Source: a virus. From it: a stretch of 53,334 nt of DNA. Of this stretch, positions 20,829 to 53,334 are shown in pieces (position 1 is the first letter of the stretch; every line of letters starts with the position of its first letter). The stretch lies in IMG/VR virus record IMGVR_UViG_3300045988_147485; one strand, 5' to 3'. The position numbers were made by a program, and so were the translations under genes. Under the pieces are notes generated by a model. It was not told where the DNA came from, did no database searches, and saw nothing but the letters and a program-made list of their open reading frames with translations.

Positions 20829-20829
20829 G

Positions 20830-33338: not shown

Positions 33339-33719
33339 TTACACATAACCTCTATTGCTTAATTCTATCGCTCTTTTTTCGGCTGCTATCTTGATAGCAC
33401 TTTTTTGGTCAAATGCAAAAACATCAACTTTTACATCCCCGTCATTAAATATTGTTACTGGATTATCGTTCGGGTCAAAATATTCCAGCCCGTCTTCATA
33501 GGTTTTTTTAACATTTCCATTTTTATCAAAGTAAATATTATAGAATTTTTTGCTCTGAAAAATAGGGTTGTAATTTTCCGTATCAAATTCCTCTATCCTT
33601 GCCGGGCTCCATTCTGTAGAGAATTTCTCTTTCAATATCTGCGCTTTTTCGTTGTCTGTTTCCACCGCGCAAATATGATATTCTGAATAGTCTCCTTTTG
33701 TTATCACATACACTTTCAT
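33339..33719 (-). CDS. Hypothetical protein (126 aa)
   Basis: ORF on the dominant strand. Confidence 0.4.
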   Translation of the reverse strand: MKVYVITKGDYSEYHICAVETDNEKAQILKEKFSTEWSPARIEEFDTENYNPIFQSKKFYNIYFDKNGNVKKTYEDGLEYFDPNDNPVTIFNDGDVKVDVFAFDQKSAIKIAAEKRAIELSNRGYV

Positions 33720-35651
33720 ACTTTTATCTTCCTTTCTTTAATAATTTCCTTATATAAATCTTCTTTTCCTGGAAATAACTGTCCTAAAATCGCAACAAGA
33801 ACATTTACGACAATGGAATTTCCAGATTGTTTGTATAACTGCGTATTTGAATTAACTTTTTCTGCCTTTTCAAAATCTTCATCCGAAAAATCCATCAATC
33901 TCCAACATTCTTTCGGTGTCAATTTTCTGATTCGGTATTGTGTTGCAACTTTTATCTGTTGTGTGCCGCCACCATTAACAGTAGTAATATTAGGACATAG
34001 TGCTTTTTCATCGTATACTGTGTTTGATTGATGCTGACCAGTTCCATTATCCATAAATCCTAACTGATTAGGCTTTTCCAACACCAAATTATCTTTCTGC
34101 ACACTTGTCAGGCAATTACTTGTACCATTATTATTTAATTCAAGTGTCTGTTCCAACTCAATTCCGGGTGTACGGTCAGATGGTTTTGTTGTATTTCTTC
34201 CACGCATTGCATCACAAACTTTCTCATCAGTAATATAGTTATAACTTCCACCGGGTAAGTTTGCCGGTAAACATAAGGAACATTCTCCCATCTGATAAAC
34301 TCTTTCCTGCTGATAATATTGTGTTCCGTTGTTTGACTTTTTTTCACCTAAACCACAGACACATTTTGTTTCTATAATTTTAGGTTGCAATCCACCGCCT
34401 CCACAAGTATTCATTGTTGGTGCCACACCTCCTATATCATAAACACGATTGGCACTTTCAAATGTATGGTCTATCGTGTTATCCATTTGACCTATTATTT
34501 TTACATCTGCCATTTTCATCACCTCAATAACTCCGCAGCACATTTTATTTACTCTTTCAGTAGGGCATATCGCACCCTCACAAATCTTTGGGCCACCAAA
34601 CTTTTTACTTTCAAAAAGTGTTATACCTATTGCATATTTAACTTTTGACATTCAATCACTCCATTGGTTCCATAGTTATTTATCCCTTTATAATCTCTTG
34701 ACATAAGCGTTGATGATACATCAATTTTTTGTGCTTGTGGTTCTAATTGTTTATCAATCATTCCTTTCAACAATACAGTTTCCATCTGACCGCAAGTTTG
34801 AGATTCCTGTGTCATATCTTGCCTTAATGCAGTTTCCGACTTGCTTTTCTCTTGGCTCGTTAATTGTTCCGTCAACGCAAATCTGCTCTGCTCTGCTCTA
34901 TTGATTGTATTTTGAAGTGTTTCGTTGTCAATTAGTTTCTGTATCAATTTCTGTGCTTTTTCGTTATTGATGTAATACTTCTCGTCAACTTCATCTTCCA
35001 GATAATCTTTCATCACTTTTTGCAGTTCAATAGGGTTTGGAAATGTAAAGTTATAATTTCCTAAAATACTAACCATAAAGCAACGATTTCTATTTTGAGC
35101 AACACCATAATTCTTTGCGTTTAAATCCTGCCAATAATTTGAATAACCTTTGCTTTCAAGGAATGCTATCCATCTTTGAAAATCTTCCATATTCTTCTTT
35201 CCGTGAACCTGTGGAACATTCTCCATAAGTAACACTTGTGGTAAATTGCCAACCTCATTCAGCAACCGTTCTACTTCCCACAATAGTCCGGACCTGGTGC
35301 CGCTACCTTTAACCATTCCCTTTTGTTTACCGGCAACCGATAAATCTTGACAAGGAAAAGAGTAAGTAAGTAAGTAAAGGTTTCAGTGTCAACTATTCCA
35401 AGATCAGAACCTCTTATTTGAGTTATGTCTGTAGGATCAAAACAAGTTCCGTGAATTTCGTTGTAACTTTTAATAGCAAATTTATCAAACTCGATTACTT
35501 TGTAATGTTCGAAGTCAGATCCAAGCATTTTTAATGCCATAGCTTGTGATCCTATTCCAGCAAAAAGTTCTATTAAACGAATTGGTTTTTTTATCTTAAA
35601 TGGCTTCTTTATAAGGTGAAGCAAATCAATTTGTTCATACATACTATCCAT
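33716..35651 (-). pseudogene. Multispecific-type DNA (cytosine-5) methyltransferase split into three ORFs (35651-35271, 35316-34627, 34651-33716)
   Basis: Motif I ELFAGIGS is in ORF1. Motif IV TYSFPCQDLS is readable only in the next frame just after a (TTAC)4 repeat. ENV and QNRNR are in ORF2. RKLTPKECWRLMDF and GNSIVVNV are in ORF3. Four TRD-like TL/PTM/CLT/NIT segments lie between motifs VIII and IX. Confidence 0.75.
35362..35377 (-). repeat. Tetranucleotide repeat (TTAC)x4 on the coding strand at the methyltransferase frame break
   Basis: The plus strand reads GTAAGTAAGTAAGTAA. Five or two units would fuse motif I to motif IV in frame (..TFTYLLTYSFPCQDLS..). Confidence 0.9.
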
Positions 35652-35844: not shown

Positions 35845-36588
35845 CTACTCTCTAATCTTTTCTCCTTTGGATTCGATCACAGCATCTTCGGGTGGAAAGT
35901 CAATTTTGTTTTCGTTCTCAAGAATTTCCTGTTTGACCTGTTCTCCAATATCATAAGTCACTTCGTTGTCCTTAAAATCCCCCTCTACAATCTCATCCGA
36001 TGTGTAAAGTCCCATTGAGATTTCGGGGCAATTCATTCTGGAAAAGAATGAAGCCGCACGGTATCTAAGCATTACCTGTGGCATGGTTTTCCACTTACTG
36101 CCGTTTTTGTCAAACCATTTTTCTGCCTTTGCCATTTCCATGTCAACAAGTGGTCCGTCTACTCTTCTTCCGTGTTTCGTAGTCCAGCATCTGCAAGAAT
36201 AAGGCTTGGAATCCTTGTCTTGCTTTTCGTCAAACTGCAATTCGATGTCATATCGTCCGCTGGCATTTATCATGCCGATAAGAGCGGATGCTCTCCATGC
36301 CGGGCGCCCCTGGATAATATCCAGATTGCGCATTACTTCAAATGGGCTTGCTCCAAATCTTTGCGACATATCAATGGCAATTAAGCAGTTACTTTCATTC
36401 CCCTGGTATTCTCTTGGCACCAAAGTAGATTTTGACAGCGCTTTTGCCATCTGCATTGCCATGATAAAATTGTCTGATGTCCCAAAAATACCCAAACTGT
36501 AGTCGGTTACTTTGTTGTTATTTTTGTTTGGCGCAACCTCTGTTTTTTCGTGCTGAACAATTTCAGTACTTGTTGTTTTTTCGTCCAT
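35845..36588 (-). CDS. recT: RecT-family single-strand annealing protein
   Basis: MAKALSKSTLVPREYQGNESNCLIAIDMSQRFGASPFEVMRNLDIIQGRPAWRASALIGMINASGRY fits the RecT core. Confidence 0.65.
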   Translation of the reverse strand: MDEKTTSTEIVQHEKTEVAPNKNNNKVTDYSLGIFGTSDNFIMAMQMAKALSKSTLVPREYQGNESNCLIAIDMSQRFGASPFEVMRNLDIIQGRPAWRASALIGMINASGRYDIELQFDEKQDKDSKPYSCRCWTTKHGRRVDGPLVDMEMAKAEKWFDKNGSKWKTMPQVMLRYRAASFFSRMNCPEISMGLYTSDEIVEGDFKDNEVTYDIGEQVKQEILENENKIDFPPEDAVIESKGEKIRE

Positions 36589-36590
36589 AT

Positions 36591-36854
36591 TTACTCGTCC
36601 TCCTTCCCATCATCAGAAGAACCTCTCAATTTATCAATCAGTTCGTCAAAAAGTTTCAAAATATGATCTTTTGTTTCTTCTGTGATTTCTTTTTCGCTTT
36701 TTCTTGAATCAGAAATCACTTTTTCTAATTCATCATTTCCAATGTTTTCTCGCAGTGCTCTCAACAATGTACAAGTTTCTGCCATGATTACTATCTTAAT
36801 TCCATCTACGCGTACCGTTCCTTTGTCTACATGAATCATAATATTTTCACTCAC
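36591..36854 (-). CDS. Hypothetical acidic protein (87 aa)
   Basis: ORF overlapping the RT stop. Confidence 0.4.
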   Translation of the reverse strand: MSENIMIHVDKGTVRVDGIKIVIMAETCTLLRALRENIGNDELEKVISDSRKSEKEITEETKDHILKLFDELIDKLRGSSDDGKEDE

Positions 36855-37884
36855 TTTCTAATATTTTTTTGCAATACAAATCCATTGTTTTGCATAATTT
36901 GATACAATTCCCATGCATTGCATGGTTTCTCCAAGCATTGTATTTTTCATAAAATTTTTCTTCTTGCATCTTGCCGCTTTTTACAAGTTTTGACCAAGAC
37001 AACAATTTTTTTCGTATTCTTCTTTTGTTGTAACTTTTTATCTTTCGTATATATTTTCCGTCCTCCGTCATGTAGTGATGGAAGCCAAGAAAACTAATAC
37101 CGCATTTGAATGGAATAATCTGCGTTTTGCCATTTAATGATAATCCAAGGCTTTTCACAAATTCTCTTATATATTCAAGGCACCATTTCAAATATTCTTT
37201 GTCATGGTGTATTAAGTAAAAATCGTCCATGTATCTTCCGTAAAGATCAATCCCCAGTTCTCCTTTTACCATCTTGTCCATTCCGTTTAGCATTAGCAAT
37301 GCATATATCTGTGCCGCTTGATTTCCTAACGGCAATCCAGGACTATCGGTGCTATTCACAAGAAGATGGTTCAACCATTTTACATAATCATCTTCAAAAT
37401 GATAATCTAAAATATCAAGAAGAATTTCATGGTCAATTTCGTAAAAGAATTTGTGGATGTCGCATTTTAGAATCCATCCATTTAATTTGTTTGAATTGTA
37501 AAAAGTAGTCATATGTTCTTTCAAACAATCCATACCAAATAAAGTACCTTTTCCTATCTGCCCGGCATAATTTGTCCTTATAAACTCATCTGCTAAAACG
37601 GGATGCAAAATATTGTCACACAAGCAATGTTGAACTACTTTGTCCTTGAAAGAGCAAGACTTAATCACTCTCTCTTTTGGTTCATAAATTTTGAACTCAT
37701 TGTATTTGCTCATTTTATATGTTTGATTCTCTAAACTCTCTTTCAAGATATTTAATCCGTCAAGGCTCATGCTCTTAAATTTCGTACAACTTCCGTTATT
37801 AGTTTTGCCAGATTTAGCACGCCTATATGCCGTATATAGGTTGTCAAAATCACATATGATACTTTTACAATCCAAATTAAACAC
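36847..37884 (-). CDS. DGR reverse transcriptase
   Basis: RT motifs QIGKGT, GLPLGNQAAQIYALLML (DGR-type motif 4) and RYMDDFYLIH (YxDD). It sits directly downstream of the template repeat and avd. The start is GTG 37884 or, more likely, TTG 37875. Confidence 0.85.
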   Translation of the reverse strand: MFNLDCKSIICDFDNLYTAYRRAKSGKTNNGSCTKFKSMSLDGLNILKESLENQTYKMSKYNEFKIYEPKERVIKSCSFKDKVVQHCLCDNILHPVLADEFIRTNYAGQIGKGTLFGMDCLKEHMTTFYNSNKLNGWILKCDIHKFFYEIDHEILLDILDYHFEDDYVKWLNHLLVNSTDSPGLPLGNQAAQIYALLMLNGMDKMVKGELGIDLYGRYMDDFYLIHHDKEYLKWCLEYIREFVKSLGLSLNGKTQIIPFKCGISFLGFHHYMTEDGKYIRKIKSYNKRRIRKKLLSWSKLVKSGKMQEEKFYEKYNAWRNHAMHGNCIKLCKTMDLYCKKILESE

Positions 37885-37973: not shown

Positions 37974-38050
37974 GATACAGAATGGGCGAACACCATTGTT
38001 GTTGTTGCAGTTATTGTTGTTGATATTGCCGTCCGGCGCAACAACCGCCA
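37974..38050 (-). repeat. DGR template repeat (TR), 77 nt, AAY-rich
   Basis: Noncoding copy of the three VRs. The variable block reads GAC GGC AAT ATC AAC AAC AAT AAC TGC AAC AAC AAC AAT. It starts 25 nt after the avd stop. Confidence 0.85.
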
Positions 38051-38075: not shown

Positions 38076-38441
38076 TTATCTTTCCTTGTCTTTGGTTCTC
38101 CATGCAATAGCCATGTGTTTTATGTCCGAAACCATCTTTGACCAATATTCCATGCTTTTCACATTGATAATGTTAAGTTTCATAGATAGTTCGATGTAAA
38201 ACAATAAGTTATCACACCTTGTTATTGCTTTTGTCTGTAATTCAGACCTTTCCCTTTTGTATTTACGAATATCTGTCCTGTTTGCTTCTGTAAGATATGC
38301 GTAAATTTCTAATGCACTATTTTGCATCTTATCTACCAACGAAAACCTGTATTTTTTAGGATACCTATTACAATTTGAGGTAATCCTTAATGTATGTTCT
38401 GCCAGTTCCATTGATTTTACGATTACTTTCAAATCTGCCAT
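38076..38441 (-). CDS. avd: DGR accessory variability determinant (Avd, four-helix-bundle protein)
   Basis: 121-aa basic helical protein (ELAEHTLRITSNCNRYPKKYRFSLVDKMQNSALEIYAYL) in the canonical position between target and TR. Confidence 0.75.
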   Translation of the reverse strand: MADLKVIVKSMELAEHTLRITSNCNRYPKKYRFSLVDKMQNSALEIYAYLTEANRTDIRKYKRERSELQTKAITRCDNLLFYIELSMKLNIINVKSMEYWSKMVSDIKHMAIAWRTKDKER

Positions 38442-38454: not shown

Positions 38455-39057
38455 TTACGATTCAAAGATTTCAGATTTTAAGATACAAACTGGGCGAACG
38501 CCATACTTGCCGCAGCAGCTAATGCCGTTGATATTGCCGCCCGGCGCAACAACCGCCACGCTACTTTCGTAGCCGTTGCTCTTTGTACTCCATGGCGTGC
38601 AGAGCCACCACCATTCGCCCGTGTTTGGCAAAAGTTTTCTGTATTTTCTATATTCGTCAACCGTCAATAAAGAAATCAACTCCACCGTATCTTCGTACTC
38701 ATCAATTCCATCCAGAGAAATAAGATCTCTTCCAAGTGGCAAAATATTTCCTACCCCGATTTCATCTTTAATCTTTTCCAACAAATCATTGTTGAGGTAT
38801 TCTCTCAATTTACTTTTAGACCAATCATTACTGCGTGAATCAAATTTCATGTCTCCGATACTGCTATTGGCAATACAAAAATATCCATCATTTGTTTTGT
38901 CCAAGATTTTCCATTCGATTGTGGCAAGGTTAAATGTGTCTCCGATTTTTAATCCGGCCGGAAGTAATCTCGATTCTTTTTTGAGGACTTCCATTGCTTT
39001 TGTCAGTTCATTTATCTTGTCCTGCAATGTCTCGATTGCTAAGTTATTTTTACCCAT
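38455..39057 (-). CDS. DGR target protein 1 (C-terminal variable ligand-binding domain)
   Basis: Start MGKNNLAIE after AAAGGAGGAAAA. C-terminus WWWLCTPWS...AVVAPGGNINGISCCGKYGVRPVCIL carries VR1. No signal peptide or TM segment. Confidence 0.8.
   Translation of the reverse strand: MGKNNLAIETLQDKINELTKAMEVLKKESRLLPAGLKIGDTFNLATIEWKILDKTNDGYFCIANSSIGDMKFDSRSNDWSKSKLREYLNNDLLEKIKDEIGVGNILPLGRDLISLDGIDEYEDTVELISLLTVDEYRKYRKLLPNTGEWWWLCTPWSTKSNGYESSVAVVAPGGNINGISCCGKYGVRPVCILKSEIFES
38482..38558 (-). repeat. DGR variable repeat VR1
   Basis: Aligns to the TR over 77 nt. In the variable block, 9 differences are at TR adenines and 2 are not (AAC->AAG, GGT->GGC). Two further non-adenine differences are in the 3' IMH-like end. 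Confidence 0.85.
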
Positions 39058-39058
39058 T

Positions 39059-39661
39059 TTAATTTTCCTCCTTTGATACAAAGATATTAGAGTTTAAGAT
39101 ACAAACCGGGCGAACACCATCGCCGTCGTTGCAGCTATGGCTGCCGATATAGCCGACCGGCGCAACAACCGCCAAACTACTCCATCCACGGTCGGATGTA
39201 CTCCATTGCGTTATTGTCCACCACCAATCGTTAAGTTTGTTGCAAACTAAAAGGTCATTGTATTTTCTCGCCTCATCAAAGGTAATTGGGCGAAAAATTT
39301 CCTCTGTAACTTTTGATTTGTTCTGTCCGTCAACACTTTCCAAAGAAACCTCATGCTTTATGAAATTTTCTTTTCCAATTTTCGCAATCAATGGGTTTTC
39401 AATGTTATTTTCAATAACCTTCTTTAAGTTTGAAGAACAATAATCAGTACTTTCTCCAAATTCAACACTTTCATCTGTTACAAAGCCTTTTGTAATAGCA
39501 AGTGTCCCTCCATTGTACTCATGATCGAGAACAATAAAGTCTTCCTCGCCAGCCACAAAACTGTCTCCCGGATTAAGAGACGATAATAAAACCTTGTTAT
39601 CAGAATTAAGTTCATTGACAATTTCCATTGCCAATTTGTAAATTTTGTCTTTTTTGTCCAT
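39059..39661 (-). CDS. DGR target protein 2
   Basis: Start MDKKDKIYKLA after AAAGGAGGTAAAGGA. C-terminus WWWTITQWS...AVVAPVGYIGSHSCNDGDGVRPVCIL carries VR2. Confidence 0.8.
   Translation of the reverse strand: MDKKDKIYKLAMEIVNELNSDNKVLLSSLNPGDSFVAGEEDFIVLDHEYNGGTLAITKGFVTDESVEFGESTDYCSSNLKKVIENNIENPLIAKIGKENFIKHEVSLESVDGQNKSKVTEEIFRPITFDEARKYNDLLVCNKLNDWWWTITQWSTSDRGWSSLAVVAPVGYIGSHSCNDGDGVRPVCILNSNIFVSKEEN
39098..39174 (-). repeat. DGR variable repeat VR2
   Basis: All 12 differences from the TR upstream of the IMH-like end are at TR adenines. Confidence 0.85.
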
Positions 39662-39674
39662 TCCTTTACCTCCT

Positions 39675-40094
39675 TTAGTTAAATGGCAATTCCGATTCGA
39701 TGTTTTCTGGTATTTCCATAAAATCATCATCATCCTGTTTCTGTGTAGGTTCGGCGTTATTGTTGCCTCCGGCCTGTTTCCGCTCGGCAAACTCGATTTC
39801 ATCTGCCATGATCTGGACGCTGTACACTTTCTCTCCGTTCTTATTTGTGTAGTTGTCGTTCTGAACACGGCCTACCAGAAGCATACGAGAACCCTGTCTG
39901 AAATATTTTTCAACAAATTCTGCCTGTTTACCAAAGGCAGTACAATTAAAAAAATCTACATTAGTTTCTCCCTCACGAGGAAATCTCCTATTTATTGCTA
40001 AACTGAATCTAGCAATAGCCATAGTTTTTTCGCCCTGTGTATAACGGATTTCCGGGTCTCTTGTAAGATTTCCCATCAAAATCACTTTATTCAT
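39675..40094 (-). CDS. ssb: Single-stranded DNA-binding protein
   Basis: MNKVILMGNLTRDPEIRYT...FFNCTAFGKQAEFVEKYFRQGSRMLLVGRVQN OB fold, with the acidic tail ESELPFN. Confidence 0.9.
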   Translation of the reverse strand: MNKVILMGNLTRDPEIRYTQGEKTMAIARFSLAINRRFPREGETNVDFFNCTAFGKQAEFVEKYFRQGSRMLLVGRVQNDNYTNKNGEKVYSVQIMADEIEFAERKQAGGNNNAEPTQKQDDDDFMEIPENIESELPFN

Positions 40095-40110
40095 CTCATT
40101 CTCCTTTCTA

Positions 40111-40827
40111 CTAAAAAGGGCATTCGTATTTCCCTCTTATTTCAATTTTCATTCCTGGATGTGCTATGTATGTATCGCATTCAGAAACTTCCTTTATTTC
40201 AGCCAGTATTCTTTCTTCGTCTGTGCTTTCTTTCCCTAAGTGGCAAAGAATTACTGTTGAAAGAAATTTTGTTTTACTGGACTGAACAAAATTCTTTACT
40301 GTAAAAAGTTCTGCATGGCCCTTTATTTTGTGAATGTTTTTTGAATCCTCTACATTCACAAGATTTTGAATGTAATTACATTCAAGGACCATATGGTCAA
40401 TTTTTCTTTTTGCAAAATTGTACGGGCAATACTCAAAGTCCGTAATGTATAATATTGTTTCATCTTCATGCGAAATCAAGAATCCACAATTTCTCGTGCC
40501 ATCGTGCGGCACTTGAAAAGCAGTAATTTTGAAGCCGCCCAACTTCTCCGCAATCATTACTCTTGCATCTGCACTTATCATTTCCAGTTCTTCATATGGT
40601 TTGAAAACTGGTATACCGCATTTTTCAATCTCTTTTATTGACCGGGAGTGGTCAAAGTGTTTATGTGACACCACACACCCAACAACTTTTTTTATATTCC
40701 AATCAAGCATTTCTTTGATACTTTTAATTGGCATCCCAGCATCAAGAAGAAGTGTCTCTTCTTGACAAGTTATTGCGTATGCATTTCCGCTGCTCCCGGT
40801 TCCGCAACATCTAAAATCCACAATCAT
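40111..40827 (-). CDS. MBL-fold metallo-hydrolase
   Basis: SHKHFDHS (HxHxDH) motif, 238 aa. Confidence 0.7.
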   Translation of the reverse strand: MIVDFRCCGTGSSGNAYAITCQEETLLLDAGMPIKSIKEMLDWNIKKVVGCVVSHKHFDHSRSIKEIEKCGIPVFKPYEELEMISADARVMIAEKLGGFKITAFQVPHDGTRNCGFLISHEDETILYITDFEYCPYNFAKRKIDHMVLECNYIQNLVNVEDSKNIHKIKGHAELFTVKNFVQSSKTKFLSTVILCHLGKESTDEERILAEIKEVSECDTYIAHPGMKIEIRGKYECPF

Positions 40828-40830
40828 TCC

Positions 40831-41400
40831 TTACGATTCAAAGATTTCAGATTTTAAGATACAAACTGGGCGAACACCATTGCTGCTGAGGCAGTTAAGG
40901 TTGCGGATAAAGCCGCCCGGCGCAACAACCGCCACGCTACTTTCGTAGCCGTTGCTCTTTGTACTCCATGGCGTGCAGAGCCACCACCATTCGCCCGTGT
41001 TTGGCAAAAGAGAACGGTATTTTTTGTACTCATCGGCGGTCAAAATCGACACCAGGTCATATGTTCCTCCATAATCTTTAAGGCCATCTAAAGAAGTTAA
41101 ATCTCTTTCGATTATATGTAAGTTTTCCCTTCCGATTTCATCTACAAAAGAATCAGATAAAATATTACTTAATTCACTGTCCCGCCAATTATTGCTTTCT
41201 TCATCAAACTTGTATTTTTCATCCAGAAAATCGGCAATAACCAAGTAACCTCCTTTTACTTTGTCAAGGCAAGTGAATTTAATGCCTCTGAACTCAAACC
41301 TATCACCAATTTCGGGTGGTTTAACAAAATTGATACTCTTGTTGTTTTCGAGTTCCCGTACCTTTTTTTCTAACATTTCAACTCTTTCTTCTAAATGCAT
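40831..41400 (-). CDS. DGR target protein 3 (close paralog of target 1)
   Basis: Start MHLEERVEML after AAAGGAGAAAAAT. C-terminus ...AVVAPGGFIRNLNCLSSNGVRPVCIL carries VR3. The 3' 180 bp are identical to target 1 outside the VR. Confidence 0.8.
   Translation of the reverse strand: MHLEERVEMLEKKVRELENNKSINFVKPPEIGDRFEFRGIKFTCLDKVKGGYLVIADFLDEKYKFDEESNNWRDSELSNILSDSFVDEIGRENLHIIERDLTSLDGLKDYGGTYDLVSILTADEYKKYRSLLPNTGEWWWLCTPWSTKSNGYESSVAVVAPGGFIRNLNCLSSNGVRPVCILKSEIFES
40858..40934 (-). repeat. DGR variable repeat VR3
   Basis: All 11 differences from the TR in the variable block are at TR adenines. Confidence 0.85.
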
Positions 41401-41413: not shown

Positions 41414-43309
41414 CTATAAATCATTTTTTATTTTCAGTTTTTCGTCACTAACAACCATGATTACAACTTGGTTTTCAATCATTTCCAGTGCCGCTTTTAA
41501 GTTGTTTGTATCAAGGCTCTCTCCATCATCTATGAAAACAGGGCATTTAATACCGTATTTTCTTTGCATGGATTGGCAAATGTCAATTTTACCAAGGATC
41601 CTCTTTGCCTTGTTGGACATTGTGTTTGTGATTGAAAAACCGTCTACCATTGGTGTACAGGTATTTTTTATCGTTCCTGCTTTACCTCTTTCAAAAAGTT
41701 TCCATTCCACAAAAGAAAATTTTTTGTTTACATCTTCCTGCAAAGATTCTGCTTTTTTGACCTCAAATTCCGTCAAAAGAGAAAGTATTCTTTGAGCATC
41801 CGTAGCAGTTTGAGCCACTTCCCGTTTTTCTTTTGTAAGTTCCTCAATTCTCTCTTCCTCTTTTTCCGTGTTTGCGTCTGATATATATTTTTTTGCTTCT
41901 ACCAACTGCTGCCGTAAATCACTTTCTTTGATCCGCAACTGTTCTCTCTTTCCAGAAATAGAGGAATATTTTTTTATTGCTTCTTCTTTTTCAGAGATTT
42001 CATTCTGAATCCGTATGTACTCCGGAGTGCCGGATATATCCGCTTTTTCCGGTATTTTTGAAAGTTCCCTTGACTTTTCGCACAACTTCTCTTTCAATAC
42101 AGAAAGAGTTTTCTCCGCAAAATTTACAGATTCATCATTTTCCTTGATCTCCTGTTCCAGTTTTTCAATGGCTTCTTTTGCATATTTCCCGTACTTTTCA
42201 ATCTCCAAAAGTGATTTTTTTATGCCCTCATTAAATTCTTCTTTCTTTTTCTCCTGCTCATCCTCTTCATAAGGTCTGCCACAGGTAGGGCATACTAAGC
42301 AATTTTCATCCATTTCAGCCGATTTCAAAGCTTCCCATTTCTCACGATGCACCCGGATTTCATTTTTATATGCCGTTATCTCATCCGTTATATTGGAAGT
42401 ATTATTTTTGAGAGAATCAATTTTTTTCTCCATCTTCTCAATCTCATCCTTGATACAAGACATTTCATATGCCGTTGTATTCCTCTCTTTATTGATCCGA
42501 TCCTGTTCTTTCATCGTTAAATTGTTCTGCTTAAATTTCAGTTCCAATATACCGTCAGAGATCGTTTTGTATTTCTCTTCCATGATAGAATTGTTTTCTA
42601 TTAAGGAAACAGTTTCATCAATTTCTTTCTCTAACTGTTTCTTTAACAGTTCCATTTCGGAAATATCCTTGTCCTCTTTTTCCTTAATCTGATCTCTAAG
42701 GACACGGATTTCAGCATCTATTTTTGTGATGTTTTCATCACAGTCTTTTTTCTTTTGTTTCGCCTTTGCCGTTATCTCTTCTACTGTGTTTTTTGAAAGA
42801 AGTTCGGAAAGTTCTTCATTGTCCGCAATTTCTTCATCTGGCTTTGCGGAAATACCAGACAAAAGAATTTTTCTCATTTCATCCGGCTTTTTCTGAATAA
42901 AGCCGTCACAAAAACTGCACAACAGCAGAATGTCCTTTTTTACCGGAAATGCTTCTTCAAAATTCCTTTTTGTCATTTTTACACTATTCACAAAGTATGT
43001 GTTAGCGTCTTTGTATTCCGTTCCGTCCTCTGAAATGGTTCTTTTCTGAACCTTTTCAAATTCAATCTCTTTCCCGTCCTCTGTCTCAATTACAGCCATG
43101 ACAGAAACCGGCTCTTCTTTCCCTCTCATCCTTACTTCTGGTGCAGATTTCATGAGAGAGTCAGTATCAAAAAACAGCCAAGCATAAGCATCAAAGTATG
43201 TGCTTTTCCCTGCGGCATTTTCTCCGCTTATGATATTTTTTTCTGCAAACTCTACCGATTCACTTTCAAAATTTTTGAAGTTTTTAAGAATCAGCCTTTT
43301 TAACTTCAT
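41414..43309 (-). CDS. SMC/Rad50/SbcC-like AAA ATPase with long coiled coil
   Basis: Walker A GENAAGKST at the N-terminus, a central coiled coil with a CxxC hook-like CPTCGRP, and Walker B PVFIDDGESLD at the C-terminus. Confidence 0.7.
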   Translation of the reverse strand: MKLKRLILKNFKNFESESVEFAEKNIISGENAAGKSTYFDAYAWLFFDTDSLMKSAPEVRMRGKEEPVSVMAVIETEDGKEIEFEKVQKRTISEDGTEYKDANTYFVNSVKMTKRNFEEAFPVKKDILLLCSFCDGFIQKKPDEMRKILLSGISAKPDEEIADNEELSELLSKNTVEEITAKAKQKKKDCDENITKIDAEIRVLRDQIKEKEDKDISEMELLKKQLEKEIDETVSLIENNSIMEEKYKTISDGILELKFKQNNLTMKEQDRINKERNTTAYEMSCIKDEIEKMEKKIDSLKNNTSNITDEITAYKNEIRVHREKWEALKSAEMDENCLVCPTCGRPYEEDEQEKKKEEFNEGIKKSLLEIEKYGKYAKEAIEKLEQEIKENDESVNFAEKTLSVLKEKLCEKSRELSKIPEKADISGTPEYIRIQNEISEKEEAIKKYSSISGKREQLRIKESDLRQQLVEAKKYISDANTEKEEERIEELTKEKREVAQTATDAQRILSLLTEFEVKKAESLQEDVNKKFSFVEWKLFERGKAGTIKNTCTPMVDGFSITNTMSNKAKRILGKIDICQSMQRKYGIKCPVFIDDGESLDTNNLKAALEMIENQVVIMVVSDEKLKIKNDL

Positions 43310-44176: not shown

Positions 44177-44788
44177 CTATTCCAAGCAAAAATACTCATG
44201 CCCCAGTTTTTTATATATTGCTGTTCCCTGCCTAAATTCCGCTTGGTAAACAAGATTGTCCGGCAGTGAATCACAATAACTTGTTTCAAGAAGCATTTTT
44301 GCAACCTTTATGCTTCTTTTTGATGGCTTATTCCAGAACTTTCCGTCAGCATATGTTGAATACTGGCCTTTTTGTGATATAACGCCCATGATTGTATCTG
44401 GGTAGTTATCATGCTTCGTTCTTTTTACCACCACGGCACCAGTCAAAATCAAAGCCTCTTTGTTCTCGTGACTACCGTTTTCGGCTTCGATGATTCTTGC
44501 CAATGCCATTAAATCATGATGATCTGATCTTTCTTTTTTATTCTCTTTTTTAACAGAGTTTTTCATATTTATTTTGGGGGTTCTTATAAGACTTTTGGCC
44601 TGTTTTGTGTCTCCGCAATACTTTCTTTCAATAGGAAAGTACCGGATCAAGTTCCATCTTGAATAATTCAAGTCAGTCATGTTGTGAATGTTTATATCAA
44701 TCACACACAAAAGCAACCATCCTATAACAAATGCCGAAATACCTATGAGTGATTTTTCAGCATAAAACCCGATTTTCGACTTTTTCAT
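44177..44788 (-). CDS. Membrane-anchored SleB-like cell wall hydrolase (Hydrolase_2-like)
   Basis: Likely start MKKSKIGF. TM helix LIGISAFVIGWLLLCVI. LMALARIIEAENGSHENKEALILTGAVVVKRTKHDNYPDTIMGVISQKGQYS matches the SleB/CwlJ signature. Confidence 0.65.
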   Translation of the reverse strand: MKKSKIGFYAEKSLIGISAFVIGWLLLCVIDINIHNMTDLNYSRWNLIRYFPIERKYCGDTKQAKSLIRTPKINMKNSVKKENKKERSDHHDLMALARIIEAENGSHENKEALILTGAVVVKRTKHDNYPDTIMGVISQKGQYSTYADGKFWNKPSKRSIKVAKMLLETSYCDSLPDNLVYQAEFRQGTAIYKKLGHEYFCLE

Positions 44789-44792
44789 ATAA

Positions 44793-45542
44793 TCAACCAC
44801 CTTGGCTTTCTTTTGGTGCGGAAACAAATTTATTCACAAAGTAAATCTGTCCCTTTCCGGTTACCTTTGTTGTCCGGGTGGTTCTTATACTTCCATCTGG
44901 ATTCTGGACATTGCTTTCTTTTATTTCAAACAGTCCCTGTTCTACATACCGCTGTAGCGGCATATTTTTTGAAGAACCGCTTTTAATAAGGAAGCCGTTA
45001 TTCCTCATCCAATCAAAAAGTCTCTTCTGACCAATCTTGACGCCGTTCTGACAAATCATTTTCGCCAAATCCCCTATTAAAATAGATGTCCGGCTTGCAG
45101 AAACCGCATCAGCAAAGATTGTCTTAGGTTTGTCCCGCTCAATCTTCTGTTCAAGGGCGTTGTTCTTTTGGGACAAATCCTCTATTTTTTTGTCAGCAAT
45201 CTTCAATGCTCTGGCCATGACCTGCTCCGGCGTGTTCCACGCCTTTTCCAGATCAATCAGATACTGCCTTACTTTCTTCGCCTTTTCGGTTTTCTGTACC
45301 ATGCATATATGCTTTGCCATATCAACGGATAATTCGTAGTCTTGCAGTTCTCTTTTAGCACCGTTATTTACAAATGTGGAACTTTTCACACTTGTAAAAT
45401 CCACATTTTCTGCGAATCCATAAGCGGCCATTCTTTCAAACCATCTTGAAAATCGATCTGTAACTTCTAATTGCTCGTACAAATTCCTTGCAGATATTGT
45501 CTGCGTATCAAAATTTACTGCTATGATTTCTTTCACTAACAT
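44793..45542 (-). CDS. Antirepressor (AntA-like N-terminal domain plus KilAC C-terminal domain)
   Basis: ISARNLYEQLEV..RFSRWFERM...LSVDMAKHICMVQKTEKAKKVRQYLIDLEK, and the C-terminal ILIGDLAKMICQNGVKIGQKRLFDWMRNNGFL. Confidence 0.75.
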   Translation of the reverse strand: MLVKEIIAVNFDTQTISARNLYEQLEVTDRFSRWFERMAAYGFAENVDFTSVKSSTFVNNGAKRELQDYELSVDMAKHICMVQKTEKAKKVRQYLIDLEKAWNTPEQVMARALKIADKKIEDLSQKNNALEQKIERDKPKTIFADAVSASRTSILIGDLAKMICQNGVKIGQKRLFDWMRNNGFLIKSGSSKNMPLQRYVEQGLFEIKESNVQNPDGSIRTTRTTKVTGKGQIYFVNKFVSAPKESQGG

Positions 45543-45815: not shown

Positions 45816-45914
45816 TGTAACTTTTTAGGTTACTCTCATTATATCACTTTTCCGTAACTTGTCAAGTTATTTTTTTCTTGACTTATAACTTTTTTGTGAT
45901 ATAATTAAGTTACC
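45816..45914. promoter_or_regulatory. Divergent switch region with face-to-face promoters and AGTTAC/GTAACT operators
   Basis: Plus strand: TTGACT (45878)-16 nt-TGaTATAAT (45900). Minus strand: TTGACA (45865-45860)-16 nt-TATAAT (45843-45838). Operator candidates are GTAAC-7 nt-GTTAC (45817-45833), TAACTTG-T-CAAGTTA (45855-45869) and AAGTTAC (45907-45913). Confidence 0.6.
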
Positions 45915-47373: not shown

Positions 47374-48021
47374 TTACAAAACACTCTTAAATACAAAGCC
47401 ATATTTCCCTTTGTATTTTACTTTTGCGTAGCCAAGTTTGGATTTATACAGTACTTCTACTTTTGAGCCTTTTTTGATAGACAAAATAGACTTGCTGGCA
47501 CGAAGAGTTTTCTTGCTCCATAATTTGCATGGTTTTTTCGTAACAGAAGTCCATGTTTTTTTGAAGTTGTCCGGGGTTTTGTATTTTTCTTTCAGTTTGA
47601 CTGTTGTACTGCCCCACTTTCCAATGTAAAAATGTGGTGTATCAACAATGCTTTTCCAATCTCCGCCCCAAGAAAGCCCTACTTTTTTTGATTTTGCGAT
47701 CTTAGCAACTTTCTTAATGGTCGCATTGTCATAAAGCAATTTGCTGTCGTTGATAGCAATATCAAAAGCAATTCCCCACATGTGCTGTGAACTGTAGGTA
47801 CTTCCTTTTGCGTTTGTAACCACTTTACCCGGCTTTGTCCTGCCCTTTGCATAAAGGCTGTCTTGATACTCTTTTGTCCGGAATCCTTCCGTAATGATAA
47901 GATAAATTCCATTCTCATTGCAGTGTTTGAGCAAAAGTTTTAATTTGTACACCAGCCATGGGTGCATTTTTTCAAGGTCAACTCTAATATCATTTTGTTT
48001 TTTCATCTTTTGTTCCCTCAC
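47374..48021 (-). CDS. Endolysin: M15 (VanY/L-Ala-D-Glu peptidase-like) catalytic domain plus C-terminal SH3b-like domain
   Basis: ITEGFRTKEYQDSLYAKGR...SQHMWGIAFDI...GGDW....DTPHF (H..D...H zinc site). Basic C-terminal repeat KGSKVEVLYKSKLGYAKVKYKGKYGFV. Confidence 0.75.
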   Translation of the reverse strand: MREQKMKKQNDIRVDLEKMHPWLVYKLKLLLKHCNENGIYLIITEGFRTKEYQDSLYAKGRTKPGKVVTNAKGSTYSSQHMWGIAFDIAINDSKLLYDNATIKKVAKIAKSKKVGLSWGGDWKSIVDTPHFYIGKWGSTTVKLKEKYKTPDNFKKTWTSVTKKPCKLWSKKTLRASKSILSIKKGSKVEVLYKSKLGYAKVKYKGKYGFVFKSVL

Positions 48022-48307: not shown

Positions 48308-48632
48308 TGTTACCACTTCCTTTCTCTATCAGTTCATATAATTCGCATAATGCGGCATTTACATCATTTTCATATGACGCCTGCTGCTCCGCTAACTCAC
48401 ATAGGGCGGCTTGTACATCTTCACCCTCGGTCGCAGCAAGCTCCGCTAAGAGCCGCTGCTGTAATTCCTCGGTAGTGTACTTACGACAGTGAGACAATAT
48501 CTCGACAACTTCTTCTTTATCATCGAAAACTTCCTCTACACTTACTCGGTCCCATTTTGACCAGTCGATGTTTTTGATTTCAACTTCGTTTTCATCAATG
48601 TTTTTAATTCTAATATCATCCATAAAAATCAC
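48300..48632 (-). CDS. Small acidic tail-fibre-associated protein (XkdW-like position)
   Basis: 110 aa with internal repeats DVQAALCELAEQQ / DVNAALCELYELIE. Confidence 0.4.
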   Translation of the reverse strand: MIFMDDIRIKNIDENEVEIKNIDWSKWDRVSVEEVFDDKEEVVEILSHCRKYTTEELQQRLLAELAATEGEDVQAALCELAEQQASYENDVNAALCELYELIEKGSGNNG

Positions 48633-51600
48633 ACTCCAATCACATATCTCAATACATGGTTTGTACTATCCACGGTAACACCATTTATTTTATTGTTCTT
48701 ACTTTCATTAGCGCTTGATCCTGTTATGTATGCTTGGTTTACATAAACATACTTATAACTAGGCCACGAGCCTATACAATACATCGCATGGCCTCCACCA
48801 GGTTGTTCAGTAACTATTTGTTTAGGAATAAAGAAACAATTCCATTCGTAATTTTGTGCCCCGTTAGAATACTTACTCCAAACCAAAACTATTCCATTTA
48901 ACTGATTTGAAATTTTATCGTTTAGTGTTGCAGTTTGGTTAGCATTCATAAAATGGGCTCCTGTCCAAAGATATTTTAACTGCCTATTTGATGTGATATT
49001 TCCCCGAGTCAACAACTGTATCTCATTTCCATAAATATTCGTGGCACCGATTTTATTGTTGTATCCTCCATATCCAAGTTCAAAATTGTTCGAAGCGCTT
49101 ATCATATGAATATTTTTAACTCGGTTTCCATATGAATTTACAAATGAAATTCCATCATCTTCGATAAATGTAGTGTTATTTACCGTTAGATCTCCGTAAG
49201 TTTTTAGGCCTGCTCCAATAGTAAAATTCGATACGCCTGTAAAATATATTCCATCCAATTCGTATGTTACAATCTTACTTGTTGTTGATTGAGCGTCTCT
49301 AAATTCAATTTTATCAAACTCTCCTTTTATCCCTACTGTTTCGCTATCGTTTTCAATTTTGAAGCCGCTCAACTCATATCTAGCAATAGCACCGGCACCA
49401 TTTAATGTGTAAAAACCATTAGAAGAAATAGCCATGTGTTCAAATTCTTCTGTTCCAACCACACCAGAATACAAATCAAGTTTTTTTGTTCCGATACTGA
49501 CTTGATTATGATCTGTGTCTAGTGCTATTATTTCAGCAAGATCCGAAGAGACGCCAAATGGCCCGAATTTGCTATCTCCTGTTATGGTCATGGATGTTGC
49601 TGTTATGTTTTGTGCAAATAAATTTTCAACATCAATTTCATTTGATGTAATGCTTTTTGCCACAATCTTATCTGCCGTAATGGTATGATCTGTTAAAACA
49701 TATCCATCAAGCGTATCTACATTTTGGCTTTCCAATTCTCCAAAGTTGTTTAATGCATATAATACGCCTTGGTTATTTCCTCTAAGCAATATTCTGTCTG
49801 CTATTAAGGTGCCGGCCGTAATACTGGCGGCGTTTACTTCCACGCTATCAAGGAATCCAGTAATATGCCCCTCAACAATCGTTGCCCGGTCAATCAGTCC
49901 AACATCTGCAAATAATTTCCCTACATTTGCCGTTTCTATATTTGACAATTCTATGTTTGCGTATTTTATATCAGCCGCATCCACTGTCAAATAACCTAAC
50001 TCGGCTACTTTTGCGGTCAAATTATCAGTTGTAATCGCTTTAGCCTCTAATGTATCAATTTTACCGTCTACTGCCTCCAGATTTGTGATTGTAGCGTATT
50101 TCAAATCTGCACTATCTGCTTTCAAATAGCCCAGTTCTGCCACCTTTGCGGTCAGATTTTCTATGTAGGCATTATCTGCGGTCAAATCAGTAATAAATGA
50201 CTTATTCACTTTCTCAAAACCGATTGTCGCATCTGCAATATTCGCATTTTCTATGGTCGAATCTGCTATTTTTTCTCCCAAGATGCTTTTAGCGTCCAGT
50301 AATTTTGCCTTTTTCATTGAATTAAGAACTCCTGCACTAAGCGTTCCAATTCCTGCGGAACTACTTGCCCCACTGCTTGTCGTAGAATCATTTCCGCCGT
50401 ACAAATCAATATCTGCCGGAGAAGATATTGACATACTGAACATTCCACCTTCCCATGAAAGATCAAGTGTGCCTACATACACAAAGCGGACTGTGCCATT
50501 GATTCTTATTTTTATTCCTGCGCCTGCATAAACAAAAGGACTGTACCCATTTAATTCTGTTTCTATTGGGTAATAATAAAAAGGCTTGTTAAGAGCCATT
50601 AAAGTAGCAAAATTATGAATTGGATATTTTGCGAAATCCATTTGACCCCAGTATGTAGGGCTAAGATTTGTTACATCGCACCATCCACCATCATCTTCTG
50701 ATACTGTGACAGGGTAGTAAATTATTTTTCTTGCTTCATCTATAACCTTTTCATTTAGAATATTTACGGTTCTTGTTGTGTCCATAAGCGCAGGAGCGTT
50801 GATAGCATCATATTTTGCTGTTGTTCCGGTTGAATCCGTGACTTTCTTTGAAAATTCTGTCATTTGCATCTGCTGGCACTCTACATCCACTTTGTACGGA
50901 CAATAGTATGCGTTCATCCTCTGGACCGGTTCTTCTATTGTATCATCATCAAAGCATCCGCAATCTGCAAAGTCATGTTCATCGTTATGCATTATGACGA
51001 TCGAACCGGCAATTTCAACGGCATTTGAGTACAAAGCAACTGCCAGTTTAGATATAGCATTTCTGACACTTGTAAATCCGTCCGTCATAGTATATCCGGA
51101 ATATGTGATACCGTTTGATTCCATCTCACTTTCTTCAATTCCATGAGGGATAACTATAGACGAGTTTTGGTAATATTCCCTTTGTGTTTCAGTCCTATTT
51201 ACATCAAAGTTAAAAAGAACCGGGACACCAAATGTATCGTAAATGTAGTGGACCAGTCCTTTTATCGACAAAATAGAACTTTTCCATATTCCCTCTGGCT
51301 TCGTTGCGTCTTTAGCAATAAAGTCTCCGCACATTTCAAGCATACCAATACCACTTACAGATACATATTCACTTGTGCTTTCTGGTGGTTCTTTTACATA
51401 GAAAACGCCAAAGTTCTGCCAGAATCCGTATAACTTAAATTCAAGCCGGATAAAATTGCCCTGTGCTATTTTATCTGTTGGCATCATTTCTATGGTACAT
51501 GTGGGGCTAAAAGTTCCCCCATATGTAAAGAAATTATCCGACATTACACCGTTACTAATGCTGATCTCAAAAAAGTCAAAATCTTCTGACTGCTCTAAAA

Positions 51601-52912: not shown

Positions 52913-52947
52913 TGTTTCATTTTATCATTTTATGCGGATTTTATCAA
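52913..52947 (-). promoter_or_regulatory. Promoter of the tail-module moron
   Basis: On the minus strand: TTGATA-17 nt-TAAAAT. The -35 overlaps the tape measure stop, about 20 nt before the moron RBS GGAGGGAA. Confidence 0.45.
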
Positions 52948-53334
52948 GCCATACTCCATGATGTGCCGCCACGGCCTTTACTTATTTTTGTTGCGTTATT
53001 CATTACCTCTGTTGTAATCTTTTTGCCGTCCAGGTATACATCCCCTCCACCAATATCCATTTTACCGATGGTTTCATTTATGGCCGCTTTTACGGCGGTA
53101 TAAACACTAGGAGCAACGGCGTTTGTAATTCCGGTGTATATCTGTTCGTTGTTTACGACTTTATTCTGTGATCCTACTTTTCCTACAAGTTCCGGTCCAC
53201 TTTCTCTTGCCATAAACATTTGACCAACTGGCGGTGTACCACCATTCTTGTACCACTCTACCTTATATCCGGCCGCTATGTACGGTGCCGCACTGGTAGA
53301 ATCAAGAACAGTTATGCCTGTTCGTTTCATTCTT
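52944..53334 (-). CDS. Tape measure protein, C-terminal part (joins to 4347..1 by circular wrap)
   Basis: The track ORF MKRTGITVLDSTSAAPY... overlaps the 55-bp repeat in the same frame as the ORF running off base 1. Combined gene is 4683 nt including the stop. Confidence 0.85.
   Translation of the reverse strand, partial: RMKRTGITVLDSTSAAPYIAAGYKVEWYKNGGTPPVGQMFMARESGPELVGKVGSQNKVVNNEQIYTGITNAVAPSVYTAVKAAINETIGKMDIGGGDVYLDGKKITTEVMNNATKISKGRGGTSWSMA
53280..53334. repeat. Terminal direct repeat (copy 2), identical to 1-55
   Basis: Same 55-mer as the window start. Consistent with circular contig closure or terminal redundancy. Confidence 0.95.

Follow-up and report, generated by a model that had tools for sequence, protein, structure and literature searches.

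The DGR of a Lachnospiraceae phage targets small proteins only, encoded in the early recombination and replication region and not among the tail genes, and we found small targets in this region in every lineage examined, even when the DGR cassette lies beside the tail genes. Relatives of these targets are, moreover, fused to a cytoplasmic MazG pyrophosphohydrolase, with DGR-type hypervariation kept. The protein class itself is already published, as the small DUF6273 DGR targets of nd4, nd12, Lelie/CP11 and Toutatis; new here are the restriction of a DGR to such targets, their genomic position and the MazG fusions. In the best-supported reading, which we put forward tentatively, the three targets (T1, T2 and T3) are early intracellular binders.

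The window, that is, the whole stretch of 53,334 nucleotides analysed, is the circularly permuted genome (~53 kb) of a temperate, siphovirus-like Lachnospiraceae phage; when 17 kb of it were compared by megablast with annotated phages, no annotated close relative was retrieved. Its DGR is complete, with Avd, TR and RT, and is accompanied by three target genes ending in variable repeats (VRs):

36847-37884, minus strand: DGR reverse transcriptase (RT), 345 aa (Pfam RVT_1, E 1e-15; PADLOC RT, E 4e-30)
37974-38050, minus strand: TR core, 77 nt with 22 adenines, from the alignment of the TR with the three VRs
38076-38441, minus strand: Avd accessory protein, 121 aa (Pfam 23S_rRNA_IVP, E 7e-7, and bAvd, E 3e-5; NCBIfam DivGenRetAVD, E 6e-12; all under the curated cut-offs)
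38455-39057, minus strand: target T1, 200 aa, with VR1 at 38482-38558 (DUF6273, 46.1 bits; phrog_9958, E 1e-47; RBS-supported start at 39057)
39059-39661, minus strand: target T2, 200 aa, with VR2 at 39098-39174 (phrog_9958, E 5e-30; RBS before the ATG at 39661)
40831-41400, minus strand: target T3, 189 aa, with VR3 at 40858-40934 (DUF6273, 37.1 bits; phrog_9958, E 4e-42)

The RT gene lies directly 3' of the TR, and its translation contains the YMDD motif and is 39% identical to the DGR RT of phage nd4 (E 1.5e-80). The TR core codes for AVVAPDGNINNNNCNNNNGVRPFCI and has 11-12 mutable codons, with ~2.5e12 possible peptides and zero reachable stop codons. A search of the whole window retrieved exactly three VRs, those at the 3' ends of the paralogous leaderless genes T1, T2 and T3, and none in any structural gene. 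Over the 77-nt core, VR1, VR2 and VR3 differ from the TR at 14, 14 and 13 positions, of which 10, 12 and 11, respectively, are TR adenines. Pooling the three cores, 33/41 mismatches occur at adenines and six of the other eight fall within the 3' IMH-like end, where every VR has two non-A differences. DNA folding of the 81 nt after each VR, in search of a stem-loop or cruciform, gave structures with a stability not above that of shuffled sequences (z -1.0 to +0.6). Among T1 homologues of 83-93% identity, differences are almost confined to VR codons. Likewise, non-adenine TR polymorphisms of the sister genomes L043 and L045 recur in their VRs, with the exception of VR3 of L045, and both comparisons support a directional flow of information from TR to VR. 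On this sequence evidence, we regard the DGR as genuine and active, and its three targets likewise.

The starts of T1-T3 were corrected using the RBS (AAGGAGG) and homologue lengths. T2, whose orthologue in L043 also has 200 aa, is the most divergent of the three paralogues, and its DUF6273 score (20.0 bits) is under the Pfam cut-off of 23.5 bits, which T1 and T3 exceed; T3 is a T1-type duplicate, with a 299-nt repeat 81% identical to the 3' region of T1. The three proteins match phrog_9958 over their full length (E 1e-47 to 5e-30), and are small (~22 kDa), acidic (pI about 5) and leaderless. The initial annotation had described three diversified proteins of about 190-200 aa with no hydrophobic leader or transmembrane segment, which agrees with the corrected lengths and with Kyte-Doolittle 19-mer maxima below 1.0 in all three. 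This extends to the class, where only one of 150 representatives shows an N-terminal hydrophobic segment. However, the weight that had been placed on the missing signal peptide was not warranted, because virion proteins likewise have no leaders. Residues C181 and C191 flank the hairpin described below and are invariant within the subfamily; a disulfide between the two is possible, although unusual for a cytoplasmic protein.

An AF2 model of T1 built from a diverse MSA (pLDDT 92.2) predicts one helix (residues 2-28) and one globular DUF6273 domain, in which the VR forms a C-terminal surface beta-hairpin spanned by strands 176-180 and 184-186; a shallow MSA gave a pLDDT of 71, below 50 in the VR region, and no lectin matches. 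The N-termini contain a three-heptad helix with 3-4-3-4 hydrophobic spacing, in keeping with the coiled coil noticed initially. In each target, a short coiled-coil-type helix precedes a C-type-lectin-like DUF6273 head, a predicted layout that resembles the neck and CRD of collectins. The best Foldseek match in the PDB was 9qa6, in its N-terminal DUF6273 domain (E 5e-7), followed by the C-terminal domain of Lcl (8q4e; prob 0.97, target-normalised TM 0.58), and nearly all others in the top 50 were CTLDs with weak E-values (0.08-0.6). The C-terminus had been likened to C-type-lectin or FGE-like variable domains: the lectin-like part stands, as deduced from DUF6273, Lcl and the CTLD matches, but FGE was absent from the top 50 PDB matches listed, and so were Mtd (1YU0) and TvpA (2Y3C), the two folds proposed for comparison. 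Neither beta-prism nor beta-sandwich is present in the model, the N-terminus being a single helix; T1-T3 contain no Pfam Ig or Fn3 domains, and the Ca2+/carbohydrate motifs EPN/QPD and WND are absent from their sequences. Their structural neighbours in BFVD include proteins annotated as receptor-binding or tail.

The target genes share the minus strand with an early operon, in the order ATPase, T3, MBL, SSB, T2, T1, Avd, TR, RT, orf87, RecT, whose other identifiable components are:

35845-36588, minus strand: RecT-family single-strand annealing protein, 247 aa, two genes downstream of RT (Pfam RecT, E 6e-5)
39675-40094, minus strand: single-strand DNA-binding protein SSB, 139 aa (Pfam SSB, E 7e-31)
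40111-40827, minus strand: MBL-fold metal-dependent hydrolase, 238 aa (Lactamase_B_2, Lactamase_B; phrog_392, E 4e-54)
41414-43309, minus strand: SbcC/Rad50-like ATPase, 631 aa (AAA_23, AAA_27, AAA_29; phrog_77, E 4e-41; weak Rad50 N-terminal matches)
45838-45865, minus strand: consensus early lytic promoter TTGACA-16-TG-TATAAT, heading the operon with the DGR and its targets
45878-45905, plus strand: divergent promoter serving the repressor, from a sequence match

This gene order and the Pfam assignments agree with the interleaving of the targets with ssb, an MBL hydrolase, an SMC-like ATPase and recT noticed initially. The two promoters match the consensus at 12/12 and 11/12 positions, and there is no convincing minus-strand terminator between the early promoter and RecT; T1-T3 lie about 4.4-7.4 kb downstream of this promoter, on the same strand as the recombination genes. 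They are also tightly packed against the ATPase and MBL genes: the ATPase stop codon (41414-41416) precedes the RBS-supported start of T3 (41400) by 13 bp, and only a longer alternative T3 ORF (start 41424) overlaps it. RecT orthologues in the sister lineages L003 and L005, which show the same layout as the window, bear PF03837. The closest tail gene to the targets is the fibre gene (48629-52015), 7.2 kb from T3, which bears out the distance of more than 7 kb given in the initial annotation, and TerL is 23.7 kb away from T1. The original observation, that the DGR targets are small, signal-peptide-less proteins of the early module and not tail fibres, is thus confirmed as a whole; its interpretation holds as regards small, leaderless, non-tail proteins of an early operon with a lectin-like fold, and fails as regards the Mtd/TvpA/FGE subtype and the argument from the leader.

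Two neighbouring genes were considered as defence or anti-defence components and discarded. PADLOC retrieved only weak P-loop matches of the ATPase to LmuB, PtuA and JetC, and the MBL hydrolase showed neither Pfam Apyc1 nor PDB sequence relatives at E<=0.01, so it was not retained as an Apyc1-type enzyme; its homologues carry only faint precomputed Apyc1 matches. For T1-T3, no PADLOC defence or anti-defence model gave a match.

Small non-tail targets in the early region also occur in 31 prophage loci and in four other phage lineages. Among the 107 ORFs flanking the 31 Clostridia prophage copies, the commonest Pfam families, each found in only a few of these ORFs, are RecT, Lin1244_N, DnaB_C, SSB, YqaJ, ERCC4, methylases and replisome organiser, and only one of the 25 families listed is structural (Tail_P2_I). 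In FP_Brigit and nd4, the cassette and a tentaclin follow the tail genes, but the early operon, at a distance of 41 kb in FP_Brigit and about 10 kb in nd4, contains the small target, which still matches the TR; the arrangement of the small targets is the same in Toutatis and Lelie. The early-operon position is kept across siphovirus-like and myovirus lineages. The class is large, with 3,582 representative clusters, and a single 90%-identity cluster of nd4_tgt2 comprises 33,878 distinct sequences.

The closest known counterparts are nd4_tgt2 and nd12_tgt2, small second DGR targets of the gut phages nd4 and nd12, proposed as Mtd-like host-receptor binders (Baykov et al. 2023, PMC10743442); their genomic position is not discussed in that paper, where the words 'replication' and 'early' are absent. 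Like T1-T3, they are DUF6273-only proteins of about 200-290 aa, containing a C-lectin-like domain with short flanking helices and a C-terminal VR beta-hairpin; nd4_tgt2 is 35% identical to T1 and is encoded in the early region, adjoining SSB and DnaC. In nd4 and nd12, however, the cassette and a large tentaclin lie after the tail genes, remote from the small target, whereas in the window the cassette adjoins three small targets and there is no tentaclin. The helix, which can be N- or C-terminal depending on the subfamily, is N-terminal in T1-T3 and C-terminal in nd4 tgt2. Similarly, Lelie/CP11, Toutatis gp24 and FP_Brigit gp06 (29-32% identity to T1) are small early-region DUF6273 proteins diversified from a distant TR, the remote VR of FP_Brigit having been found in the present analysis; unlike T1-T3, they occur as one copy per genome, have a C-terminal helix and are partnered by a Hoc-like or tentaclin target. 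These larger targets share the DUF6273 variable head, and T1-T3 show a partial match to phrog_10993, but tentaclins have the VR near the N-terminus, with DUF6273 preceding Ig/Fn3 domains, whereas T1-T3 have no Ig/Fn3 and only 189-200 aa.

Mtd from Bordetella phage BPP-1 and TvpA also carry the VR at the C-terminus of a C-type-lectin-superfamily fold, with AAY-rich TR codons and the cassette order Avd-TR-RT; T1-T3 differ in having no beta-prism or beta-sandwich, in being about half as large as Mtd and in not adjoining tail genes. By context and proposed role only, T1-T3 can be likened to ORF84 of Quimbyvirus, a non-structural DGR target in a defence-related island with a proposed role in phage-host conflict (Benler et al. 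2021, PMC8008677). Both are located apart from structural genes and among nucleic-acid-modifying genes, although Quimbyvirus is a Bacteroides phage in which one of two targets is non-structural, and its ORF84 is surrounded by methyltransferases, a nuclease and a tRNA ligase, instead of RecT, SSB and the ATPase.

In twelve 90%-identity clusters, the DUF6273 target domain is joined to an NTP-pyrophosphohydrolase of the MazG type, which exceeds the gathering score of PF03819 and matches PDB 5ie9 (E 0.004), and these fusion genes are located in early regions. Members that are 91-96% identical vary only in the VR. Comparing the fusions of L040 and L046, 15/15 VR mismatches affect codon positions 1-2, as against 65/104 mismatches at codon position 3 outside the VR. 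A pattern scan of the viral contigs for the TR of the fusion-bearing phages retrieved only another VR copy, and no MazG-like gene was found in the window or in the other loci. A reverse-order fusion (P0443) was set aside, with a 20-residue BLASTP match of E 0.02 and no Pfam or PDB match. In the single-member relative P0346, the fusion partner is a cell-wall hydrolase domain.

The initial annotation offered three roles, namely an early, possibly cytoplasmic binder, a virion or ejected protein, and a protein released at lysis; the diversified MazG fusions and the lineage-independent early placement favour the first. T1-T3 would probably be made in the cytoplasm early in infection, as suggested by gene order, because they are on the same strand as the recombination genes and closely packed with them, lie downstream of the early promoter and have no export signal. 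The DGR rewrites a C-terminal beta-hairpin of ~11 codons in three paralogous proteins; adenine-mutagenised TR cDNA would replace the VRs during replication, and every progeny genome would receive its three binders in a new combination. A role of T1-T3 as receptor-binding proteins of the tail fibre is improbable; within the infected cell, they may serve as soluble and hypervariable binders, probably oligomeric, of a fast-varying host or competitor factor, such as a defence or takeover target. Against an intracellular action count that DUF6273 is elsewhere extracellular or virion-exposed and that in nd4, Brigit and Toutatis the small target shares its TR with a virion-type tentaclin, as well as the invariant C181/C191 pair, the P0346 fusion, the failure to find a TR for the MazG fusions and the lack of defence or anti-defence matches.

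It is less probable, although deserving consideration, that T1-T3 are accessory virion proteins for receptor binding or adhesion, with the helix docking trimers of lectin heads on the tail or capsid, as Mtd on BPP-1 fibres, and with an early location devoid of meaning. The published view of tgt2 as Mtd-like host binders points in this direction, and so do the variable DUF6273 heads found in tentaclins and in many larger phage proteins with RBP or tail annotations, and the collectin-like neck and CRD trimers among the structural matches. A leaderless protein also fits cytoplasmic virion assembly, and a helix found at either terminus, depending on the subfamily, is like a portable docking handle. 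Nevertheless, virion proteins would hardly be expected to keep an early-operon position in siphovirus-like and myovirus lineages, even with the cassette beside the tail genes, and with a single structural family listed around the prophage copies. Besides, T1-T3 have no attachment domain such as a beta-prism or Ig, and a cytoplasmic MazG fusion is hard to square with an external fibre tip.

We consider it rather improbable that the targets are soluble lectins stored in the cytoplasm that act outside after lysis, either as masks or decoys for the receptors of nearby cells and cell debris or as binders of mucus or other microbial glycans. The extracellular-type lectin fold in a leaderless protein, the invariant Cys pair either side of the hairpin and a coiled-coil neck suggestive of an avidity-based binder would suit this role, and a Faecalibacterium lysogen is reported to have a tentaclin with DUF6273 in its secretome/EV fraction; but the gene for a product needed at lysis should belong to the late or lysis module and not come right after a recombination ATPase gene, the MazG fusions point to an intracellular activity and T1-T3 lack the glycan-binding motifs. 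Finally, some phages package anti-defence proteins (P1 Dar, T4 IPI*), and small, acidic, leaderless proteins with MazG-fused relatives could be packaged in the capsid and ejected with the DNA to act as soon as the next infection begins, but this is very improbable, as genes for packaged proteins normally lie among the late genes and are expressed with them, T1-T3 have no recognisable capsid-targeting sequence and no tool result supports it.

The view of phage DGRs as diversifiers of tail proteins that broaden adsorption and host range persists up to a gut-virome atlas preprint of 2025. Our results describe a large and abundant class of gut-phage DGR targets that is systematically encoded in the early replication/recombination region and that includes fusions to a nucleotide pyrophosphohydrolase of the cytoplasm. 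It is possible, if speculative, that tgt2 proteins form a DGR-diversified repertoire of intracellular binders, comparable to cytoplasmic antibodies, against fast-evolving host immunity or takeover targets, with some of them wired to MazG; this would be the first DGR aimed inside the cell. Should they be virion proteins instead, their conserved placement in early operons would still need explaining. If their action is indeed intracellular, the arms race between phage and host would have a second arena served by DGR hypermutation, and proteins of the T1-T3 type would be natural scaffolds for evolvable intracellular binders.

The reverse transcriptase gene (RT, 36847-37884), the template repeat core (TR, 37974-38050) and the gene for the accessory variability determinant (Avd, 38076-38441) form a standard DGR cassette. 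A 17-nt anchor from the TR has exactly four exact copies in the window, versus 0.01 expected, one in the TR and the others in the variable repeats (VRs) of three paralogous target genes, whose starts were fixed from AAGGAGG ribosome-binding sites and the lengths of homologues:

38455-39057, T1 (200 aa), VR at the gene end
39059-39661, T2 (200 aa), VR at the gene end
40831-41400, T3 (189 aa), VR at the gene end

Across the 77-nt core of the three VRs, TR adenines account for 33 of the 41 TR-VR differences, and two of the non-adenine differences in each VR sit in the 3' IMH-like end. The TR translates as AVVAPDGNINNNNCNNNNGVRPFCI; its 11-12 adenine-bearing codons give ca. 2.5 × 10^12 reachable peptides and no reachable stop codon. 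T1 homologues with 83-93% identity differ nearly exclusively at VR codons. Likewise, two sister genomes (L043 and L045) show the three-target layout, and non-adenine polymorphisms of their TRs recur in their VRs, with the exception of VR3 of L045. DGR diversification is real in nature. In L043, VR3 (4185 region) carries an in-frame deletion resulting in a 185-aa protein, and VR3 of L045 (3703 region) is devoid of the non-adenine TR polymorphisms found in its VR1 and VR2; both cases suggest that homing into VR3 of the duplicated target may be less frequent or partial.

The long ORFs in the window (53,334 bases) are nearly all on the minus strand, and the genes assigned outside the DGR include:

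8591-9829, major head protein (structural)
10833-12260, portal (structural)
13026-14768, TerL (structural)
48629-52015, tail-fibre-like protein (structural)
47374-48021, endolysin (lysis)
26292-27647, serine integrase (lysogeny)
near 45.9 kb, divergent repressor/Cro switch (lysogeny)

The tape-measure gene is broken by the window ends (1-4392 and 52944-53330, each piece matching phrog_28918) and, therefore, the window is a circularly permuted, complete phage genome; contigs of its relatives are 52.4-53.4 kb. None of the scanned tail-region proteins matched a tail sheath, pointing to a siphovirus-like phage. Two other regions deserve mention. A C5 cytosine DNA methyltransferase (33716-35651) appears to be split among three ORFs that overlap and differ in frame (35271-35651, 34627-35316 and 33716-34651); a pseudogene, a frameshift from sequencing and programmed frameshifting are all possible explanations. 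Additionally, the stretch at 15000-21000, with the terminase gene on one side and a second Ant-like gene on the other, contains ORFs on both strands, has a higher GC content (0.41-0.44) together with an inverted GC skew, and is a possible cargo or moron region.

The early operon starts at the following promoter, opposite a near-perfect divergent promoter for the repressor:

45865-45838, minus strand, perfect consensus promoter

From this promoter down to RecT there is no convincing minus-strand terminator, and the gene order is Cro-like, Ant, SleB-like hydrolase, SSB-like, SbcC/Rad50-like ATPase, T3, MBL hydrolase, SSB, T2, T1, Avd, TR, RT, orf87 and RecT. The target genes lie close against those next to them, at most 13 bp from the ATPase and MBL genes; this layout suggests that T1-T3 are synthesised early and in the cytoplasm. 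The initial annotation placed the targets inside an early recombination/replication module rather than among tail fibres, and this holds: they share the operon with the ATPase, SSB and RecT, and a search of the whole window found no VR in structural genes. The SleB-type cell-wall hydrolase (44177-44827) has an N-terminal hydrophobic segment and is encoded in this operon, distant from the endolysin; the gene is kept in relatives, where it appears as Hydrolase_2. We also considered the MBL hydrolase (40111-40827, between T3 and SSB) as an anti-Pycsar Apyc1 protein, and discarded it: precomputed matches of its homologues were faint or weak, and the window protein gained no support from Pfam (E ≤ 0.01) or PDB sequence searches.

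The RT is directly followed by RecT, with a 1-nt gap, in the sister lineage L003 (11181-12954) and in L004 (2580-4353), and one small ORF separates them in the window (35845-37884) and in the other sister lineage, L005, with SSB nearby. A phage single-strand annealing protein and SSB beside a cDNA-making RT recall retron recombineering, and the adjacency raises the question of whether RecT might help DGR cDNA to integrate. This adjacency is limited to the lineage of the window, and RecT appears in only 4 of the 107 flanking ORFs of the prophage survey described below.

T1-T3, with a pI of ca. 5, contain no hydrophobic segment (Kyte-Doolittle 19-mer maximum below 1.0), in agreement with the earlier claim that they lack a signal peptide and transmembrane segment. 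They match PHROG 9958 (unknown function) end to end, and their C-terminal part matches Pfam DUF6273, above the gathering score for T1 and T3 and just under it for T2. The N-terminal helix shows a clean 3-4-3-4 hydrophobic spacing across three heptads. The AF2 model from a diverse 82-sequence alignment (pLDDT 92.2, pTM 0.81), which replaced a poor one built on a shallow alignment, predicts a helix (residues 2-28) plus one compact alpha/beta domain; the VR forms a beta-hairpin whose strands are 176-180 and 184-186. Foldseek comparisons to the PDB retrieved the N-terminal DUF6273 domain of ThomasA, a secreted IgA protease (9qa6, E 5e-7), the C-terminal domain of Legionella Lcl (probability 0.97) and, with weak E-values, other top matches that are almost all C-type lectin domains, including the trimers SP-D, MBP-A and CL-K1, composed of a coiled-coil neck and a CRD. 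Matches in BFVD are phage proteins with DUF6273 or DUF1566, and neither Mtd nor TvpA is among the top 50 PDB matches. These structural matches therefore support the lectin-like fold in the proposed C-type-lectin/FGE-like variable domain, but not its Mtd/FGE subtype.

The target family comprises 2,145 matches and 3,582 representative clusters; most representatives are standalone proteins of ca. 206 aa, and among the 150 best a single one bears a hydrophobic segment at its N-terminus. A metagenomic relative of 6979 aa (P0122) repeats the N-terminal, non-VR half of the domain 24 times in tandem, ahead of a proline/alanine-rich tail; it is presumably a surface protein of a bacterium. Scanning one genome per species, we found 31 prophage copies in Lachnospiraceae (Lachnospira, Roseburia, Agathobacter, Dorea, Mediterraneibacter, Blautia and Coprococcus), Christensenella and Oscillospiraceae, the usual unit being a T2-like and a T1-like gene, Avd and RT. 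Lachnospira intestinalis CLA-AA-H89B, for example, has a prophage (L009) belonging to the phage family of the window. Many of the 107 flanking ORFs had no Pfam match; the matches were mostly to replication/recombination families (RecT and Lin1244_N, 4 each; DnaB_C and SSB, 3 each; YqaJ, ERCC4, AAA_23 and one DNA methylase family, 2 each), and only one of the 25 families listed was a tail protein family.

Judging by gene order, the early position of the small target is independent of the location of the cassette. For example, FP_Brigit (NC_047909.1) carries Avd, RT and a Hoc-like target at 44.7-48.8 kb, after the tail fibre, and the small gp06 (L007 3948-4559, annotated as hypothetical protein) opens the early operon, ahead of the exonuclease and RecT. 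The 3' end of gp06 is a remote VR, 88.8% identical to a TR ca. 41 kb off (L008 31412-31491); the other VR is in the Hoc-like gp60. Likewise, in nd4 the Avd, TR, RT and the VR of tentaclin, a larger target with the same domain, are at 19.2-21.8 kb, following the tail genes, and the small target tgt2 is ca. 10 kb further, beyond the lysis gene and adjoining SSB and DnaC. Toutatis gp24 and Lelie orf58 are also in early regions. The initial observation is confirmed, and its scope is wider than its author could have known.

Searching with a 39%-identical relative, we retrieved twelve clusters of ca. 280-aa proteins that carry, after the DUF6273 domain, a MazG nucleotide pyrophosphohydrolase domain (PF03819, 24.7-31.4 bits versus a cut-off of 22; PDB 5ie9, E 0.004). 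Fusion genes were located in the early region of a Toutatis-like phage group, upstream of the terminase, with methylases on one side and REP/RecU on the other:

L040, 10001-10846, DUF6273-MazG fusion
L041, 7145-7999, DUF6273-MazG fusion
L042, 1484-2338, DUF6273-MazG fusion
L046, 6053-6889, DUF6273-MazG fusion

Five members with 91-96% identity differ nearly exclusively in the VR, with an invariant MazG part. When two copies further apart (L040 and L046) are compared, the 15 mismatches in the VR are all at codon positions 1-2 and 65 of the 104 mismatches outside the VR are at position 3, a bias that is the AAY-codon signature of DGRs. A pattern scan of viral contigs did not recover the cognate TR of these phages, only another VR copy. 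A possible fusion in reverse order (P0443) has a 20-residue BLASTP match (E 0.02) and no Pfam or PDB match. The substrates of MazG enzymes are nucleotides of the cytoplasm. One MazG-like enzyme from a phage reportedly counters defence by depleting (p)ppGpp.

Small DUF6273-only DGR targets have already been published, including those of Lelie and CP11, described with unclear function, and a second VR gene 17.5 kb from the TR in Toutatisvirus; the words 'replication' and 'early' are absent from the tentaclin paper (PMC10743442). In 2021, a DGR target of Quimbyvirus that is non-structural and lies in a defence-related island was reported as unprecedented (PMC8008677), and phage DGR targets were described as mainly tail proteins by Roux et al. 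(2021) and still so in a 2025 atlas. T1-T3 are members of a known family and, therefore, do not represent a new kind of element; what varies here is that the DGR serves small targets only, that its cassette is inside the recombination module and that there are three paralogues.

Our readings of the role of T1-T3 draw on gene order, architecture and fusions. An intracellular role is plausible, albeit tentative. It is rather unlikely that they are virion-associated accessory binders; on location, the single-member P0346, a DUF6273 relative joined to a cell-wall hydrolase domain, points the opposite way to the MazG fusions, and we found no virion proteomics of small DUF6273 targets. A lectin released at lysis is improbable for these early-operon proteins, even with their lectin-like fold. 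In all, the MazG fusions, together with the conserved position in early regions, tip the balance towards a role inside the cell.
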